Shown here: in pieces, positions 1 through 63,023 of the stretch | Numbering within the stretch: position 1 is the first letter of the stretch | Layout: every line of letters begins with the position of its first letter | Source of the DNA: Escherichia phage FL38 | Strand: one strand, 5' to 3' | Sequence record: PP400784 | DNA: 64,000 nt | The notes under the pieces: model-generated | What the model was told of the DNA's origin: nothing | Database searches by the model: none | The model's input: the letters and a program-made list of their open reading frames with translations, nothing else | Translations under genes and position numbers: made by a program

Positions 1-1604
1 AGAATGCACAGCGTTTGAAAGTAGATCCGACTCAGGGGCTTAACCTTACTGGTGATTTGTGGCAAGGTATCATGATCAGCGGTCTGGATGCAACCGAAGA
101 CACAAAAGGTGTCGCTAAAGTTGCTACTACTCAGCTTACTGACGCTGGTCAAGATGATACTACAATCATCACGCCTAAAAAGCTGCAAGGCAAAAAGGCC
201 ACCGAAGGTAAAGAAGGCATTATCCGAGTTGGTACTCAAGCCGAAACCGTGGCTGGTATTATGGACAATGTAGCAATTTCTCCGAAGAACTTCAAATATG
301 TTGTTCAGACAGAGGATACATGGAAAGCAACCGAAGCGCGTCGTGGCTTCTTGAAAGTTGCTACTCAGGAAAACTGTTTTGTTGGTGATAATCTGCAAGG
401 TTCTACTCAAGAACTAGGAAACTACCAGCATGACGGAATTGCTGTTACTCCGAAAGGATTAAACTACGCACTTGCTAATTTCTTACCTAAGATGGCAACC
501 GCTCAGAATAGTTTGAAATTGGGTAACGTAGAGGCCGCTAAATGGGCGCGTAGAGACATTGACCAGACCATAGAGAGCAATTACACGTTTAATAAAAAAG
601 TTAACGTGAAGGGCGATTTAGAGTGCTTAAAATCAGGTTCCTTTGAAACTCTGTCTGTGACTAAGAACTCGACCGATGTTCCGAGTAATGGTCATCTGGT
701 GTTGGGTGAGCGTGGAGTTGACGGTCACACCGGAATTACTCTGCATGGCACAACCGCATCGGAAGGCATGAAAAACTCTTGGTCTATTATCGTTGGTGGT
801 ACTGGAACAGCGCAAGTTGTTGATAGTGATGCTATCGCTTTCGGTAAAATCAATGATGGTGGAGTCGTTGAGCATTACGCCTTTGCTATGAAACACAATG
901 GCGACGCGACAGCATATCGAGACTTTATTGCAGGTCGTAACCTGTATGCGAAACAAGGCGGTTTATACATTGTTGACCAGTCTAATCCGGCAATGACTCG
1001 TTCCCCAGATGGTATGCTGAATATCGGTCACGGTGGAAGTGTTAACATCAAGGCAGGGCATCAAACGTTAACTACAGAGATCGCCGGACAGAAGTATCAG
1101 ATCGTACATGCAGGAAACGCTGACGAAGTTCTTAACCGTCAGTTTGTTAAGAATGCTGGCGATACAATGGTCGGTAAGCTGACTATGGATAATGCGCCTA
1201 TTGTTTCTGTTAAGCATGAAGCTAGCGCGGCAACCGCTCCGGCAATCGGTAACATCGGTTTCTGGAATATGCGAGTTACTACCCAGAACATCAAAGAAAC
1301 TTATCCAGAGAAGAAAAACGGTACTCTGATGCAATGGGGTACTGACGCGGACGGGCTTACCCAGCTTTGGTCCCCTGATGGTACTCATAAACATTATATC
1401 CGTTCCGGTACTGGTGGTCAATGGACCGCATGGGGTGAAATTTACACCAAACAGAACAAGCCTACCGCTCAGGAAATTGGGGCAGTGGTTGCCGAAGGTG
1501 GTTTGATGAACTCTATGACGGTTCGTGATTGGATCAAAGTTGGTAATGTTAAAATCATCGCCAATAATCTGACTCGTACCGTAGACTTTATCTGGGAAGA
1601 CTAA
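1..1604 (+). CDS. 34: long tail fiber proximal subunit (gp34-like), C-terminal part; 5' end lies outside the window
   Basis: Frame open from window start to TAA at 1602-1604; first codon in track is TTG, not a real start. Position immediately upstream of 35-36-37-t. Carries the tail-fibre motif YTKQNKPTAQEIG near its C-terminus. Confidence 0.55.
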   Translation, partial: NAQRLKVDPTQGLNLTGDLWQGIMISGLDATEDTKGVAKVATTQLTDAGQDDTTIITPKKLQGKKATEGKEGIIRVGTQAETVAGIMDNVAISPKNFKYVVQTEDTWKATEARRGFLKVATQENCFVGDNLQGSTQELGNYQHDGIAVTPKGLNYALANFLPKMATAQNSLKLGNVEAAKWARRDIDQTIESNYTFNKKVNVKGDLECLKSGSFETLSVTKNSTDVPSNGHLVLGERGVDGHTGITLHGTTASEGMKNSWSIIVGGTGTAQVVDSDAIAFGKINDGGVVEHYAFAMKHNGDATAYRDFIAGRNLYAKQGGLYIVDQSNPAMTRSPDGMLNIGHGGSVNIKAGHQTLTTEIAGQKYQIVHAGNADEVLNRQFVKNAGDTMVGKLTMDNAPIVSVKHEASAATAPAIGNIGFWNMRVTTQNIKETYPEKKNGTLMQWGTDADGLTQLWSPDGTHKHYIRSGTGGQWTAWGEIYTKQNKPTAQEIGAVVAEGGLMNSMTVRDWIKVGNVKIIANNLTRTVDFIWED

Positions 1605-1637: not shown

Positions 1638-2777
1638 ATGACACAAGATATAGAATTACGCAATACTGGAATTAGGTTTGCGCATTTCGACGAAGACTCT
1701 GCGACATTTACCAGCATTTCAGAAAATAACTCTGTGATGTATAAGCTGGAAGTGCGCGGATCTAATGCGGATTCTACCAAACCAGCAAGGATTAGATTTA
1801 ATGGAGTGGAGATCGTTGGCACTGGCTATGAAAATGGCCTAAATTTTAAAGTTCTTACTCCAACTGGACAACTACACGAAGAAAAGGTATTCTATGGTCG
1901 CGGTGCTGTTTTGGCAATGCGTGATTATCTTTCTTTGCTGAAAGGTGACTATATCATTGCGATGGCAACGCATGGAGAATTGTTTGCAGATCCGATCAGT
2001 GATGGTGTATTCTCTAAGCTGGGATCTGTATCATTCCCGAATCACATTTTGCTACAGCAAATGCCTCGTGTATCCTATGCAGCAATTTATTCTACTAAAA
2101 TGGGTAAAATTGTGTGCGAAGGGATGCAAGCAACTCACGGGGAAGGACAAGATTCATCTATACAAATTGAGAAAGTCTATGATACTATAGATGATCTTGC
2201 TATAACAGGAACACCACAACGATTTTTAGATTATCCGGTTGAGTATGTTAGCGAAGATTCCGAACATTTCGAGCTAATACAATGGCCTCGTGATGAGACC
2301 AGCGCCCCACTTGAGGATTTTAACATAAAGGCAGGTGACAAACTATCAATATCCTTTGAATTGTTCCGTGATAGTGCCGCAGCCGCAGCCAACGTAACAG
2401 CGCGTTTCTATCACAACTACTTCACCGATGGACAATATCAAACTGGTGTTCGATACAATGCCAGCAAAAAAGACCAATGGGAAAAGTTTGAAGCCGTCTA
2501 TACCGTACCGGAAGGAGTTGATAGTGTAGTAACTGGTTGTATCAGATATCCAACCAACTCCAATGAAGGTATTGTTAAAATTAGAAACATACTAATAACG
2601 CCGATCAGTGGAGTCGTCAAAACTACTGGTCCTACTTCATTTGGTGTTAATGGTGTTAGAACAACTCATATTCAGGATAACGGTGATTTTACTAACCCTG
2701 TAATGAGTCTTCTTAAACTACCCAGAGATAATAAACACATCACATCCAACAACTTTAAAGAGTTCGATGTTGATTAA
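1638..2777 (+). CDS. 35: long tail fiber hinge connector (gp35-like), 379 aa
   Basis: ATG at 1638; size close to T4 gp35 (372 aa); position between 34 and 36; followed by a terminator. Confidence 0.55.
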   Translation: MTQDIELRNTGIRFAHFDEDSATFTSISENNSVMYKLEVRGSNADSTKPARIRFNGVEIVGTGYENGLNFKVLTPTGQLHEEKVFYGRGAVLAMRDYLSLLKGDYIIAMATHGELFADPISDGVFSKLGSVSFPNHILLQQMPRVSYAAIYSTKMGKIVCEGMQATHGEGQDSSIQIEKVYDTIDDLAITGTPQRFLDYPVEYVSEDSEHFELIQWPRDETSAPLEDFNIKAGDKLSISFELFRDSAAAAANVTARFYHNYFTDGQYQTGVRYNASKKDQWEKFEAVYTVPEGVDSVVTGCIRYPTNSNEGIVKIRNILITPISGVVKTTGPTSFGVNGVRTTHIQDNGDFTNPVMSLLKLPRDNKHITSNNFKEFDVD

Positions 2778-2940: not shown

Positions 2941-2948
2941 TATAAATA
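2941..2948 (+). promoter_or_regulatory. T4-type late promoter -10 box TATAAATA upstream of gene 36
   Basis: Exact TATAAATA ending 35 nt upstream of the gene 36 ATG; a GAGG Shine-Dalgarno lies in between. Confidence 0.6.
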
Positions 2949-4543: not shown

Positions 4544-7333
4544 ATGGCAGATTTAAGCAGAATCCAATTTAAACGCACTAGCACTAAAGGTCGTAAACCT
4601 GATGCTAGTACGATGAATCCGGGGGAATTGGCAATCAACCTTGCGGATCAATATCTTCTTACTAAAAATGATTCCGGTGCTATTATCAATTTAAGTTGTC
4701 CTCCTGTTTATGACCGCGATGTTACAATGGCGGGTAAGGTTAAAGGTAATAATTATATCTTAAGTAAAACCGCTAACTATCTGGAAGATCAGACCGCACG
4801 AGATCTTAATTACTTTGGTGCTTTCCGAACTAATGGACAAGATGGTCTTTTAGATCTAACTCTTAATGTTCCTCATTCTGCTGGCATTAATCATGGTCGA
4901 GGATTTACTTTCCGTTATGCGACTGGCGGATCTCGTGTTGAAACCTATGGGTATAATGCACAGGGACAAAAAGCATTTAGCTATAAAATGTATCACGAAG
5001 GTGATAAACCAACTCCAGGAGAATTGAACGTCTATAGCAAACAAGAAATTGACCGGATGTTTGTTAAGAACGTTAAAATGGTTGTTCCTTCTGGTGGTAC
5101 AAACCGTGGTTATTTTAAAATTGCATCCGCAATGATCCCGCAGAGTGGTCGGATGGCGTTTCTGCGAATCTATGGTGGTAATGGATATAATGTAAACTCA
5201 TATGACCAAGTTGATTTTCTTGAAATTGTTATTCGTAGTGGTAATAATAACCCTAAAGGCGTTAGTATTGCTGCATATCGTCGAAATTCTTTGAACGTCC
5301 ATGAAGTATTTGCAATTAATACTTCCGGTGATAGCTATGACATTTATGTTAACTATGGTCGTTACACTGATAACGTTATTGTAGAGTTTGGAAAAACTGT
5401 TGACGTCGCATTGACTGTTCATGATGTTCCTGAATTTTCGGCGACTAAACCAGAAACCGGAACTAAATTTGATGCTCGTGTTATTACGATGTTCAACACC
5501 GAAAACAAAGCCGGAACATTGATGTTTGATAATAACAATCAGTTAACCTATGATATTGTTAGCCTTAGCAATGGTCCTGATGATGTTAGAAATTATCTGC
5601 GTAAATTCCGAAGTAAAGCGGGTGAAATGATTTGGCATGAAACCGTTCAGGGTGCTGTATATCGTCTTGCTACTGGAACTACTGATTCTACGGAAGTTCT
5701 TAGAGTTGATTCTAACAGTGCTCTCCCGGGTAGCTATAAAGGATATGTAATTACTGGTAAAATGGAATTGCACGGTAGCGGTAGTGCGATGAATTTACAC
5801 CGCCAGACTGGTCAAGCTGCATATATGGCGTGGTGGGATCGTCGTGATGGTAAAAACCAACGTAGTGGTTATATCGGCCATGCGGATGGTACTACTGATG
5901 GTTTTGTGTGGCGTAATGATGTTGGTGCGAACTCATTTGATTTGGAAAGTAGTGGACAAGTAAATTTGACTACAGGAAAAACAAAAATTGTATATACCAA
6001 CGGACAATATTATTCCGCTAACTCTGATGCATTCCGTATGATTTACGGCAATTATGGCGCATTCTGGCGTAATGACGGCACTAAAGTTTATCTTCTTTCT
6101 ACTGCCGAAAATGATCGTTTTGGTGGATGGAACGGCAACCGACCATTCATTTACGATTTGACTTCCGGTAACGTTCAATTAGGCGGTGACGGTAACGAAG
6201 CTGCATTAACGTTAGAACGTGCAAGCAAAGCCGCTCGTTTTACGGGTGATGTTTATGTAGAAAAAGGTTTCCTTCATTTCTCTAGTGGACGATTAGGATC
6301 TCGTGATTTCTTTAAAATCAACCATTGGGGTGATAGCAATAACGGTCGTGATAACATTTTGCAGTTTGAAGACAATAGCGGTGCACACTTCACAACTGAA
6401 CGTAAAATGGCAACCGGTGAAATTACTGCGCGATTTAAAGGATTTGTGCGTGTAGAATCTGGCGAAATTACATTCCATGCTAACCGTGGTTCTTCTTCGC
6501 AATTTAGTCTCAATACATGGGGTAATGAATCACGAAAACAAGTTTTTGAATGTAAGGATGCAACAAGTTATCATTGGTATACCGAACGTACTGCGGGTGG
6601 AACTGGTCCGGTTAAGTTCTCTGTTGCAGGTTCTTTCTATAGCGGAAGCGATGCTAACGTAGGCGGTAGTCTGAATTTTGGTAATGCTATTCAACGCGGC
6701 GCTAGCGTCATTACTATAGATTCTGGTTCTGCGGGTGCTGGTTCTTTTGCATCTCAACATGATGATAACGTCAAAGCACCTATTTTCCAACGTTTAGACC
6801 GTGGTGATGCGTCTACATATGTTCCTTTGATCAAGCAACGTTATGTTCAAGGTGCAGTAACATTCTCGTTGGGTATGCTTCTTAATGAAGGTTCATGGCG
6901 AGTTCATGTTAAAGGTTCTGGTGTTGAATCTAATACTACCTTCTATAAAAACGGCGATTTCCAAGCTGGACGCAATGGTAACTTTAACGACGTTTACATT
7001 CGCTCTGATGCTCGCCTTAAAATCAACAAGGAAGAGTATAAGGAGAATGCCACTGATAAAGTTAATCGCTTGACGGTATACACCTATGACAAGGTTAAAT
7101 CTTTAACCGACCGTACTGTCATTGCTCATGAAGTTGGTATTATTGCTCAGGATCTTGAAAAAGAATTACCGGAAGCAGTAACAACTTCTAACATCGGCGA
7201 TCCCGATAAGCCAGAAGAGATCTTAACAATTTCTAACTCTGCTGTCAACGCTCTTTTAATTAAGGCGTTTCAGGAAATGAGCGAAGAATTGAATGCCGTT
7301 AAAGCTGAACTAGCGGAACTTAAAAAGAATTAA
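4544..7333 (+). CDS. 37: long tail fiber distal subunit (gp37-like) with a C-terminal intramolecular-chaperone-like domain, 929 aa
   Basis: ATG at 4544; synteny 34-35-36-37-t; motif YHEGDKPTPGEL near the N-terminus; the last ~110 aa begin with SDARLK, which matches the autoproteolytic chaperone domain of T5 pb1 and endosialidase tailspikes. Confidence 0.75.
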   Translation: MADLSRIQFKRTSTKGRKPDASTMNPGELAINLADQYLLTKNDSGAIINLSCPPVYDRDVTMAGKVKGNNYILSKTANYLEDQTARDLNYFGAFRTNGQDGLLDLTLNVPHSAGINHGRGFTFRYATGGSRVETYGYNAQGQKAFSYKMYHEGDKPTPGELNVYSKQEIDRMFVKNVKMVVPSGGTNRGYFKIASAMIPQSGRMAFLRIYGGNGYNVNSYDQVDFLEIVIRSGNNNPKGVSIAAYRRNSLNVHEVFAINTSGDSYDIYVNYGRYTDNVIVEFGKTVDVALTVHDVPEFSATKPETGTKFDARVITMFNTENKAGTLMFDNNNQLTYDIVSLSNGPDDVRNYLRKFRSKAGEMIWHETVQGAVYRLATGTTDSTEVLRVDSNSALPGSYKGYVITGKMELHGSGSAMNLHRQTGQAAYMAWWDRRDGKNQRSGYIGHADGTTDGFVWRNDVGANSFDLESSGQVNLTTGKTKIVYTNGQYYSANSDAFRMIYGNYGAFWRNDGTKVYLLSTAENDRFGGWNGNRPFIYDLTSGNVQLGGDGNEAALTLERASKAARFTGDVYVEKGFLHFSSGRLGSRDFFKINHWGDSNNGRDNILQFEDNSGAHFTTERKMATGEITARFKGFVRVESGEITFHANRGSSSQFSLNTWGNESRKQVFECKDATSYHWYTERTAGGTGPVKFSVAGSFYSGSDANVGGSLNFGNAIQRGASVITIDSGSAGAGSFASQHDDNVKAPIFQRLDRGDASTYVPLIKQRYVQGAVTFSLGMLLNEGSWRVHVKGSGVESNTTFYKNGDFQAGRNGNFNDVYIRSDARLKINKEEYKENATDKVNRLTVYTYDKVKSLTDRTVIAHEVGIIAQDLEKELPEAVTTSNIGDPDKPEEILTISNSAVNALLIKAFQEMSEELNAVKAELAELKKN
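7004..7333 (+). other. predicted intramolecular chaperone (peptidase S74-like) domain at the C-terminus of gp37
   Basis: RSDARLKINKEEYKEN...AELAELKKN; the Ser of SDARLK is codon 821 (7004-7006), in frame with the 4544 start. Confidence 0.6.
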
Positions 7334-7373
7334 GGAAACTCCCAGGGAAGGGAACTACTAAGGAGAAACGGCT

Positions 7374-7646: not shown

Positions 7647-8303
7647 ATGCAAGTTTCTGAAAAAGGGAAAGACTTTGCTATCTCAAATGTCCTGCGCGCT
7701 ATTTTCACAACTAAAAGCACGGAGTTGCTCGTACTTCGTGTTTTTGCTGCCGTCGTGTTGTCCATATTAGCATTTGTCGTTTATAGTAAAAACGAGTTAT
7801 TTGCGCTTTATAAAGAGACTCGTTATGAGACTTATGCTCACATTCTCCAGGTAGAGAAAGACCGCAATTTTGATAATGCAGCACAGGAGCAGTTACAGAT
7901 AGTTCATGTGTCGGCTGATGCCGATTTTTCTGCTGTTTTTAGTTTTCGTCCGAAAAACCTAAACTATTTTGTTGATTTGGTGGCATATGAAGGAAAGCTA
8001 CCGCATACAATCGATGAAAAAAATTTAGGTGGATTCCCTATCAATAAAACGAGTGAAGAATATCGTAGGCATCTTTTAGGTAAATCCTATTTTACCGATA
8101 AAGATTTCCAGTATATTCCATCAAGAGAAAAGAAATTAGAGAATATCGATATAGGTTTCATGTATTCTTGTCCTATATTCAATCTCGATAATGTCTATTC
8201 TGGTAGTATCGCCATTTCATGGAAGAATAAACCGGATATTGACATTGAGAATTTAGATACTCTTTGCAATCAATCTGCCAGAATCCTCGGAAGGATTAGA
8301 TAA
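7647..8303 (+). CDS. t: holin T, 218 aa
   Basis: Same length as T4 holin t; N-terminal transmembrane segment; long stretches match remembered T4 T (QLQIVH.S..ADFSAV.SFRPKNLNYFVD..AYEGKLP, MYSCP.FNLDN.Y.G, ARILGR). Confidence 0.9.
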   Translation: MQVSEKGKDFAISNVLRAIFTTKSTELLVLRVFAAVVLSILAFVVYSKNELFALYKETRYETYAHILQVEKDRNFDNAAQEQLQIVHVSADADFSAVFSFRPKNLNYFVDLVAYEGKLPHTIDEKNLGGFPINKTSEEYRRHLLGKSYFTDKDFQYIPSREKKLENIDIGFMYSCPIFNLDNVYSGSIAISWKNKPDIDIENLDTLCNQSARILGRIR

Positions 8304-8586: not shown

Positions 8587-8930
8587 TCTGGAAACTTCCC
8601 GTAAACATTCTCTGCCAACTTACGTGCATCGCTAATAATATCTTTCATGTGATGGTCGTATTGCTTTGCCATAATAAGAATACAATCAATGAAGAATGAA
8701 TAACGTCTAGAATTTACTAAAAAGTTTTTACCTAGTGAATCAAACGGATCTGGATCATCAAGTTCGATAGATTCTCTAACTTTAGACAATTCTTTCATTA
8801 CAAGGTTTACATCGTTTATAATATCTTTTGATTTATATGCGCCTTTCTTTAACAATATGGCGGTCAATTCTGACGCAGTTTCTTGAAATTCTTTCTGATA
8901 AGCTGAGTTTACATCATCGATATTAAACAT
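8583..8930 (-). CDS. hypothetical protein, 115 aa; paralog of 8940..9272
   Basis: Both proteins start MFN(I/F)D and share helical pattern and a C-terminal ENxYG; tandem duplicates. Confidence 0.45.
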   Translation of the reverse strand: MFNIDDVNSAYQKEFQETASELTAILLKKGAYKSKDIINDVNLVMKELSKVRESIELDDPDPFDSLGKNFLVNSRRYSFFIDCILIMAKQYDHHMKDIISDARKLAENVYGKFPE

Positions 8931-61819: not shown

Positions 61820-61847
61820 ATTATAGCATTGTGATTATCTTTGTCAA
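61820..61847 (-). promoter_or_regulatory. early promoter TTGACA-N16-TATAAT
   Basis: Drives 61500..61790. Confidence 0.6.
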
Positions 61848-61852
61848 CACCC

Positions 61853-61884
61853 AAAAACAAAAAAGGCTACCCCGAAGGATAGCC
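61853..61884 (-). terminator. strong rho-independent terminator after the gp38-like gene
   Basis: 8-bp stem GGCUAUCC/GGGUAGCC with UUCG tetraloop followed by UUUUUUGUUUUU. Confidence 0.85.
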
Positions 61885-61891
61885 CATAAAA

Positions 61892-62677
61892 TTACACGCG
61901 AGCACCGTAGATCGTGCCTACTTTATCCCAGCGAGGGGCATTACCAGTAACAGCTTTACCCGCAGCACCACCCGAGTGAACAGTTCCACCAGTACCACCT
62001 TTAATATATGAAGATTTGCCAGCAGCTCCCAAATCTCCACCATCTCCTCCATAATGAACCCCAGAAACAGTGCCTTTACCTGGGGCAGAAATTGTACCAG
62101 CAGATGCTGCCGCTGCGCCGCCTCCTGCCGCACCCGCAGCACCAAATGGACGGCCTCCACCGCCGCCAAATTTCATATCCATTTGAGGGAAAGGATTGTA
62201 TCTAGCACCAGCACCGCCACCACCGCCACCACCAATAATACCATTATTGTTTATTCTTAAACGAGTTCCAATTCCGTTATTTATTGCATTTCCTCCTGCT
62301 CCACCAGCAGAGTTACTTCCGCCATTTCCTCCACGACCTAATACATGAACACCAGAGTTAATAATGAGTGTTACATATTCGTTTGTCAGTGAGTTAGGGA
62401 AATCAAGACAAGGAACGCCAGTAGATTGGGAAACAATATTACCCGTGATAGTAATTACTACCGGAGTAGATCCTTGTGCTTTCATCCAGTTAATAAGAGT
62501 GTCTTTATTGTAAGAGTTACTAGCACCAATGCTATAATGAATCTCTTTAGAGCGTCCGACCATTGCCGACATATACGCCGGACGACCTAAGCGAACAGCT
62601 TGCATTGCGGCGCTCATCCACCGTTGACCAGTCTCGGACACAGCAGATGATCCTACCCATCCAGAAGATATTGCCAT
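61892..62677 (-). CDS. gp38-type glycine-rich adhesin-like protein (T2/S16-type receptor-recognising protein architecture), 261 aa
   Basis: ATG 62677 with GAGG upstream; N-terminus MAISSGWVGSSAVSETGQRWMS closely matches the remembered gp38 adhesin N-terminal domain (GWIGSSAVNETGQRWMS); C-terminal half is a series of poly-Gly motifs (GRGGNGGSNS, GGGGGGGAGA, GGGGGRPFG, GGDGGDLGAAG) between short variable segments. Confidence 0.65.
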   Translation of the reverse strand: MAISSGWVGSSAVSETGQRWMSAAMQAVRLGRPAYMSAMVGRSKEIHYSIGASNSYNKDTLINWMKAQGSTPVVITITGNIVSQSTGVPCLDFPNSLTNEYVTLIINSGVHVLGRGGNGGSNSAGGAGGNAINNGIGTRLRINNNGIIGGGGGGGAGARYNPFPQMDMKFGGGGGRPFGAAGAAGGGAAAASAGTISAPGKGTVSGVHYGGDGGDLGAAGKSSYIKGGTGGTVHSGGAAGKAVTGNAPRWDKVGTIYGARV

Positions 62678-62690
62678 AAAATTTCCTCAC

Positions 62691-62713
62691 AAGAAAAGCC
62701 CCAATTAAGGGGC
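62691..62713 (-). terminator. terminator-like hairpin upstream of the gp38-like gene
   Basis: GCCCC-uuaauu-GGGGC followed by UUUUCUU, 14 nt before the RBS. Confidence 0.6.
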
Positions 62714-62731
62714 ATTGATTGATAATATTAC

Positions 62732-62953
62732 TTAGATGACCTCTGCTTCACCATTCAGGAAGAAAGACCATGTTTTGTTAGGATAGCGAAGCGCCCATGA
62801 TTCAGCGGTTTTAACACCAGCTTCGAACAATTGACGGCTGGTTACTTTAGCCATACCATCTTCGATGGCAACGTTTTCAATAATCATCGGGTACTTAGCG
62901 CCACGCATGAAACCGAAGCCAGCGGAAGATTTGATAATTTTAACCGTTGCCAT
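62732..62953 (-). CDS. hypothetical protein, 73 aa
   Basis: ATG 62953 after AGGAGAATCAAAA; own promoter. Confidence 0.4.
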   Translation of the reverse strand: MATVKIIKSSAGFGFMRGAKYPMIIENVAIEDGMAKVTSRQLFEAGVKTAESWALRYPNKTWSFFLNGEAEVI

Positions 62954-62994: not shown

Positions 62995-63023
62995 ATTATG
63001 CAATAACACAGGATCGCTGTCAA
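62995..63023 (-). promoter_or_regulatory. early promoter TTGACA-N17-CATAAT
   Basis: Drives 62732..62953 and, by read-through, the gp38-like gene. Confidence 0.55.

Follow-up and report, generated by a model that had tools for sequence, protein, structure and literature searches.

Why does the adhesin gene of a T4-type phage lie among early genes, far from the gene of its fibre partner? The question is raised by an ORF near one end of the window, by which we mean the whole 64-kb stretch of Escherichia phage FL38 DNA that was analysed. The first-pass annotation, made from the letters alone, described a stranded gp38-type gene and proposed that it could be a relocated or co-opted receptor-binding module, or a part of an alternative fibre system. 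The features discussed are listed in Table 1.

Table 1. Positions of the features discussed, given in the window unless another record is named.
Feature	Position	Strand	Remarks
g34, C-terminal part	15-1604		
g35	1638-2777		
TATAAATA late-promoter motif	2941..2948	plus	35 nt before g36; only exact copy in the window
g36	2983-4473		
gene 37 (g37), distal long-tail-fibre subunit, gp38 partner	4544..7333	plus	Pfam Gp34_trimer, Peptidase_S74
orf79 (Dc5 in RB49), 79 aa	7374..7613	plus	PHROG 402 (unknown function); where T-evens have g38
holin t	7647..8303		after orf79
early promoter TTGACA-16-TATAAT, extended -10 TG	61820..61847	minus	drives orf96; with the terminator, a PeSL-type element
strong intrinsic terminator, 9-bp stem, UUCG loop, T6	61864..61885	minus	-14.7 kcal/mol, z -4.5; directly after g38; conserved
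gene 38 (g38), long-tail-fibre tip adhesin	61892..62677	minus	ATG-start ORF, 261 aa
AATAAATA inside g38, late-promoter-like	62278..62285	minus	codons A-I-N-N; judged incidental
Shine-Dalgarno GAGG	62685..62688	minus	7 nt before g38 ATG; kept in RB49, GEC-3S, W115
weak stem-loop GCCCC-TTAATT-GGGGC, then TTTTCTT	62698..62713	minus	5 GC pairs, -11.2 kcal/mol; between orf73 and g38
orf73, small early ORF	62732..62953	minus	first gene after the early promoter; PHROG 7345 (unknown function)
sigma-70 early-type promoter TTGACA-17-CATAAT	62995..63023	minus	closest promoter before g38; GEC-3S has a promoter annotated at this site
three-paralogue module	G37-3 MK327941.1, 157810-158716		593-1499 of the extracted segment

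The ORF is a full-length gp38 adhesin gene of the T2/S16 type that has moved away from g37. Its translation starts MAISSGWVGSSAVSETGQRWMS, and the HMM search suggested as a check in the first-pass annotation matched both relevant Pfam models above their curated thresholds, namely Gp38_N (PF21721; residues 1-40, 3.9e-18, 65.6 bits, cut-off 25) and GP38 (PF05268; residues 45-261, 4.4e-70, 236 bits, cut-off 25). The product also matched PHROG 2056, 'tail fiber protein; host specificity' (5.6e-99), and the crystal chain 6F45_D of Salmonella phage S16 gp38 (1e-48), with residues 1-259 aligned to 1-247. These matches bear out the two-part architecture that had been read from the translation. The solved S16 homologue is composed of an attachment domain, a beta-helix and a polyglycine-II sandwich, and the alignment shows that the homology of the window gp38 extends over its full length. 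The C-terminal half holds five glycine-rich motifs (GRGGNGG..GGAGG, GGGGGGGAG, GGGGGRPFGAAGAAGGG, GGDGGDLGAAG and GGTGG..GGAAG), and allele variation is concentrated in the four variable segments between them. Of the span first assigned to the gene, 61892-62713, the lower limit is indeed the ORF edge, but the ORF extends only to 62677, and 62713 belongs to the upstream hairpin, of which it is the 5' edge. No second gp38 homologue was found when the 64-kb window was searched.

At the opposite end of the window, g37 is followed by orf79 and then by t, in the order noted at first and at the coordinates of Table 1. The distance from g38 to g37 is 54.6 kb and their strands are opposite, in agreement with the initial estimate of about 54 kb; the proximity to dam also holds, this gene lying ~4.7 kb downstream of g38 according to the W115 annotation. 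The late motif at 2941 probably drives g36-g37-orf79-t. The Peptidase_S74 match covers residues 821-880 of gp37, which ends in a self-cleaving intramolecular chaperone and not in a T4-type needle. Among the gp37 proteins of the phage collection, that of kaaroe comes closest to the FL38 gp37, with 87.6% identity; those of other Krischviruses share 72-82% with it. As for orf79, it is also found downstream of g38 in the Krischviruses that keep g38 beside g37; its presence in both arrangements means that it does not take the place of g38.

Comparison with related genomes shows that the position of g38 is ordinary. The window belongs to a Krischvirus, an RB49-like phage of the T4 type: over 2 kb around g38 it shares 99% identity with Escherichia phages W115 and kaaroe and 89-99% with about forty further genomes of Krischvirus, GEC-3S and ECD7 among them. 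The gp38 itself shares 99.6% of its residues with those of W115, kaaroe, MIZ2/3/6 and FL37, the last phage being 98.4% identical at the g38 locus. In RB49 the orthologue RB49p079 (NP_891650; 45367..46143, minus strand) has the same neighbours and is annotated 'g38; similar to T2 and RB69 gp38 adhesin'. When the window, RB49, GEC-3S and W115 are compared, the spacers on either side of g38 (54 nt upstream, 101 nt downstream) hardly change, whereas the specificity region of the gene does.

To survey this site, the contiguous orf73-orf96 junction of phage G37-3 was used as an empty-site probe, which matched 58 Krischvirus records. The displaced g38 cassette splits the site in 43 of them, and the site is empty in 14 (13 contiguous junctions plus FL04, whose record is cut there), with a single ambiguous case. 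Ten of the empty-site genomes (MIZ4, MIZ5, kvi, G2494, G5211, FL20, LF73P4, KMB43, FL04 and FL15) carry g38 straight after g37, before orf79 and t. None of the genomes examined had g38 at both the displaced and the g37-adjacent position. Krischvirus is thus polymorphic for the position of g38, which is reported here for the first time. A 2025 paper described FL37 and FL38, with g38 away from the holin, as Krischvirus exceptions (PMC12032242); in our survey, on the contrary, the displaced arrangement is the majority (43/58) and the holin-adjacent one a minority (10). The gene is neither stranded nor unexpected for a phage of this kind: its position is the normal one in 43 of 58 records and has been published for RB49, in a passage of Trojet 2011 that cites Desplats 2002 (PMC3157838).

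The displaced arrangement is therefore already known and the norm for the genus, and the function of the gene is established. Golomidova 2022 (PMC9569957) treated gp38 as the RB49 long-tail-fibre adhesin, a monomer that attaches once the chaperone domain has been cleaved off, and isolated RB49 host-range mutants with E230K, or E230K with Y231S, in gp38. Because these mutations map to it, the displaced gene is a working adhesin gene. By extension, the gp38 of the window would be a monomeric adhesin capping each long tail fibre: its N-terminal domain would dock on the tip of the gp37 trimer once the S74 domain of gp37 has cleaved itself off, and the loops between the glycine-rich motifs would contact the host receptor.

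An early-type regulatory context and neighbouring ORFs of unknown function could instead speak for a co-opted or redundant copy that is no fibre adhesin, for instance an early receptor-binding protein for superinfection exclusion or a component of a second fibre system. We consider this very improbable. The window contains a sole gp38 homologue and each related genome has the gene in one place only; the genomes with g38 beside g37 have lost the displaced copy. Each related genome has a single g37, so that the second gp37-like gene proposed as a check was not encountered; the N-terminal gp37-attachment domain is intact and, in RB49, the host-range mutants map to the displaced gene itself. Furthermore, the flanks are invariant and the specificity segments vary, as they do in adhesins. 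Hence, of the readings offered at first, that of a relocated receptor-binding module was right, though already known, and those of a co-opted module or an alternative fibre system were not upheld. We are highly confident that the window gene is the functional g38 of a Krischvirus.

The window allele differs from that of RB49 in its specificity region, which matches a type of allele known from another genus. Between codon 5 and a point 4 nt beyond the stop, the window g38 is 84% identical at the nucleotide level and ~90% at the amino acid level to the g38 of the Tequatroviruses RB18, AV115, UFV13, Shfl2 and Kha5h, and this similarity ends at the ORF borders. Similarly, the variable segments of RB49 g38 recur in the g38 of kvi, and those of GEC-3S in the g38 of Paracelsus, both at the canonical locus. 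As judged from these alignments, exchange between the displaced g38 and Tequatrovirus gene 38 is continuing, and it involves specificity segments and sometimes the entire coding sequence. Such exchange fits the motif-mediated swapping described by Trojet 2011 (PMC3157838) and Tetart 1998. One g38 allele (99.6% identical) is paired with gp37 proteins that are only 72-88% identical, in kaaroe, MIZ6, W115, FL37 and Delraymugoa; this mismatch is expected because the two genes are unlinked. The window carries a new mosaic allele of g37, whose evolution is independent of that of g38.

Exchange also concerns the minority arrangement. The distal g37 plus g38 of FL04 is 93.7% identical in nucleotides to phage Paracelsus over 1.7 kb, and that of G2494 is 88% identical to Tequatrovirus over 1.4 kb. 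For kvi, the same segment shows 81% identity overall, rising to 96% with other Tequatroviruses across the g37/g38 junction. Compared with the g37 of the window, the distal g37 segment of the canonical-order genomes shows only ~72-74% identity, over the chaperone domain. From their sequences, the g37-adjacent g38 modules look like imported Tequatrovirus-like tip modules.

A different arrangement was observed in three further empty-site genomes, G37-3, G2248 and UPWr_E1, where g37 is followed by a hairpin and three tandem paralogous ORFs of ~100 aa, g38 being absent at both positions. The motif FDIPNGW is common to these ORFs, whose N-termini, of the form M-x-x-W-(V/I), recall the GWVGSS start of gp38. 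Neither Pfam nor PHROG has a match for them, and of 50,697 phage records only 3 contain them. A tblastn search of the complete G37-3 genome, in which three diverse gp38 proteins served as queries and hits up to E = 1 were considered, detected no gp38 homologue. The three-paralogue module may be a third, new kind of fibre tip. In KFS-EC, a decayed hybrid of the three-paralogue ORFs (remnant at 1201-1524 of the extracted segment) accompanies a displaced g38. Comparison of window positions 7333-7373 with the equivalents in kvi, G2494, FL04, FL15, KFS-EC and G37-3 showed that every variant downstream of g37, whether without insert, with g38 or with the three paralogues, ends at AAAAAGAATTAAGGAAA(A)CTCCC just before orf79. 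In the window, g37 takes its stop and its final three codons from this sequence, which has the appearance of a fixed recombination boundary.

Comparison with the empty site also delimits the displaced cassette. In the empty-site genomes, the orf73 stop is followed by a promoter with a stem-loop between its -35 and -10 boxes (TTGACA-cggggagaaatccccg-TATAAT), the same leader and orf96; the insert extends accordingly from the orf73 stop codon, its left edge, to the orf96 promoter, its right edge. Its 3' end carries a stem-loop and a promoter (61885-61820) and its 5' end a stem-loop only (62713-62698). In this genus, the g38 gene normally resides in the hyperplastic early region between tk/rI and dam/nrdC, and not after gene 37, as a compact cassette of hairpin, ribosome-binding site, g38, terminator and early promoter set between orf73 and the orf96 promoter. 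Such promoter/stem-loop (PeSL) elements have been proposed as recombination anchors (Arbiol 2010, PMC2839356). The articles PMC2839356 and PMC4122927 do not mention g38 in connection with PeSL elements.

These boundaries bear on the polarity of the change. The canonical g37-g38 order could be ancestral, the displaced cassette resulting from a later PeSL transposition that spread through the greater part of the genus; the opposite view takes the canonical-order genomes for secondary imports. In favour of an ancestral canonical order, the insert has a right edge of the PeSL type and a different PeSL occupies the same point in the empty site, PeSL-mediated shuffling is documented for phi1 and RB49 (PMC2839356), and g38 follows g37 in all other Straboviridae with gp38. 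On the other hand, the left edge is a bare hairpin without promoter, and the canonical-order copies, 81-94% identical in nucleotides to Tequatrovirus over 1.4-1.7 kb of distal g37 and g38 and 96% at the g37/g38 junction, look like recent imports because the rest of their genomes is not that similar to Tequatrovirus. The polarity marker proposed first also failed. This was 'AAAAAGAATTAA', found after g38 in canonical-order genomes and taken for a relic of a window-type g37 end; the paralogue module of KFS-EC abuts it and G37-3 has a diverged form, so that, being a shared right-hand boundary, it gives no polarity. We therefore hold an ancestral canonical order to be a possible history, with less than an even chance of being the true one.

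The regulatory layout around g38 was then compared with what had been noted at first. The gene is bracketed by two hairpins, as claimed (62713-62698 and 61885-61864), and the upstream one is nearly invariant in RB49, GEC-3S and W115; it is probably an attenuator through which g38 transcription must pass. The lack of a late promoter near g38 was confirmed and can be extended, since neither TATAAATA nor ATAAATA occurs upstream of the gene as far as the end of the window. Over the 64-kb window, ATAAATA was found twice on both strands together, against 22 +/- 4 expected from shuffles, and TATAAATA once, against 5.4 expected. The two ATAAATA copies lie before g36 and inside g38. This scarcity of motifs points to a strong avoidance of spurious late promoters in the window.

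For the sequence past the end of the window, the near-identical phage W115 was used. Reading towards g38, it presents TATAAATA, rI, rI.-1, an 11-bp terminator, an early promoter TTGACA-17-CATAAT and four small ORFs, followed by the 63023 promoter. The early promoter at 62995-63023 had been taken for the only route to g38, but a second early promoter and the rI late promoter lie further upstream. The nearest same-strand late promoter is the one before rI, 2.6 kb upstream of g38 and behind the strong 11-bp-stem terminator, with T-run, that follows rI.-1. In W115 it occupies 8858-8865 of the extracted segment, ~1.26 kb past the window end. In RB49, GEC-3S and W115 alike, the tk terminator hairpin (CCCCAGATT...AATCTGGGG) carries the conserved TATAAATA of this promoter in its loop. 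For RB49, an entry in the supplement of Nolan 2006 predicts a late promoter before rI, Pl:48756. At short range, the promoters feeding g38 are only of the sigma-70 early type, and g38 is the last gene of a sigma-70 early-type unit, behind a weak hairpin. The early control proposed at first is a reasonable reading of this sequence.

Three other regulatory candidates were discarded. The internal AATAAATA (62285-62278), considered as a late promoter for a shorter product, is absent from the g38 of RB49 and GEC-3S and present at the same place in Tequatrovirus RB18 g38; it therefore came with the allele. An escape from RegB through GAGG in place of GGAG is unremarkable, GGAG being present in only 14 of 31 neighbouring genes. 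Finally, a ribosome-binding site hidden by structure in the read-through RNA, in the manner of T4 gene e, was not supported, the fold being no better than that of shuffles (z -0.51).

How could g38 be expressed, given that it lacks its own late promoter? The simplest and most likely route would be attenuated read-through of the weak hairpin, from the sigma-70 promoter at 63023-62995 and from one unit further upstream; judging from the layout, we give it a slightly better than even chance. It would supply the small amount of gp38 required, six copies per virion. In T4, AsiA takes only minutes to silence the sigma-70 early promoters. Should this also apply to RB49-like phages, a gp38 made early only would have to be synthesized many minutes before the fibres assemble, which weighs against the early route, as does the possibility that the upstream hairpin and its U-tract terminate efficiently. 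As the main alternative, g38 could be expressed late, on gp55-dependent transcripts that start at the rI promoter, ~2.6 kb upstream, and pass both the rI.-1 terminator and the weak hairpin. The conservation of the same-strand TATAAATA before rI in RB49, GEC-3S and W115, together with the Nolan 2006 entry, favours this route; long late units also seem to exist in this genome, where the single motif at 2941 serves g36-g37-orf79-t, and the avoidance of ATAAATA suggests that the late polymerase scans this DNA. However, the 11-bp-stem terminator with its T-run stands between rI.-1 and the next early promoter, ahead of the weak hairpin, and late transcription would incidentally express five early ORFs a second time. 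Late expression of g38 by this route appears rather unlikely to us. Early read-through and late transcription are not exclusive, and transcripts from the rI promoter may add to g38 expression. A literature search for Krischvirus transcriptomes, or for transcript or protein timing data, found none.

Of the picture drawn here, the displaced g38 layout and the function of gp38 as an adhesin were already known; the polymorphism of the Krischvirus g38 site, the Tequatrovirus-like modules up to 94-96% identical in nucleotides, the three ~100-aa paralogous ORFs that replace g38 in three genomes and the regulatory layout of the window g38 are new. For annotation and host-range prediction, the adhesin of an RB49-like therapeutic phage is to be sought in the tk-nrdC region and not after gene 37. 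Furthermore, since g38 is unlinked from g37, host-range engineering can swap the small g38 cassette alone. The timing of a structural gene that lacks a late promoter, such as g38, is a question of modest interest. More speculatively, and with the balance somewhat against it, the tip adhesin of most Krischviruses could be a virion protein made by sigma-70 early read-through, uncoupled from the gp55 late programme, in a genus with at least three interchangeable tips: the displaced g38 cassette, the imported Tequatrovirus g37-tip plus g38 module, and the three tandem ~100-aa paralogues without gp38.

Among known systems, the T2/T6/S16-type gp38 of Tevenvirinae has the same two-part architecture as the window protein, with the attachment domain and five glycine-rich motifs, and its partner gp37 likewise carries an S74 chaperone domain. 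The T-even g38 also has a hairpin directly upstream of its ribosome-binding site. In those phages, however, g38 comes directly after g37 and shares its late strand and its transcript, whereas the window g38 is 54.6 kb off, on the other strand, inside an early unit and without late promoter. The nearest relatives are RB49 g38 and its orthologues in Phi1, JSE, GEC-3S, ECD7, W115, kaaroe and FL37, which share the locus, the strand, orf73 upstream and orf96 downstream, as well as the 54-nt and 101-nt spacers with the same hairpins and promoter. Only the specificity region sets the window gene apart from that of RB49 (73% aa identity overall), the window matching the Tequatrovirus RB18-type allele; nothing else differs.

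The cassette also resembles the PeSL cassettes of phi1 and RB49 (Arbiol 2010, PMC2839356; Comeau 2014, PMC4122927) in that its 3' boundary consists of a stem-loop and then an early promoter, that a PeSL, its stem-loop set between -35 and -10, occupies this point in the empty allele, and that the locus lies in a hyperplastic region. It differs from them by its 5' boundary, a stem-loop without promoter, and by its cargo, which is an essential virion gene and not an ORFan. The last parallel is with the T4 genes e and soc, whose arrangement is similar, a gene of late function lying downstream of early promoters with a hairpin adjoining the ribosome-binding site. McPheeters and colleagues reportedly observed in 1986 that these late genes are also transcribed early. 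In T4, the hairpin contains the late promoter, and the early transcript is not translated; the window g38, by contrast, is without late promoter and has no significant structure over its ribosome-binding site.
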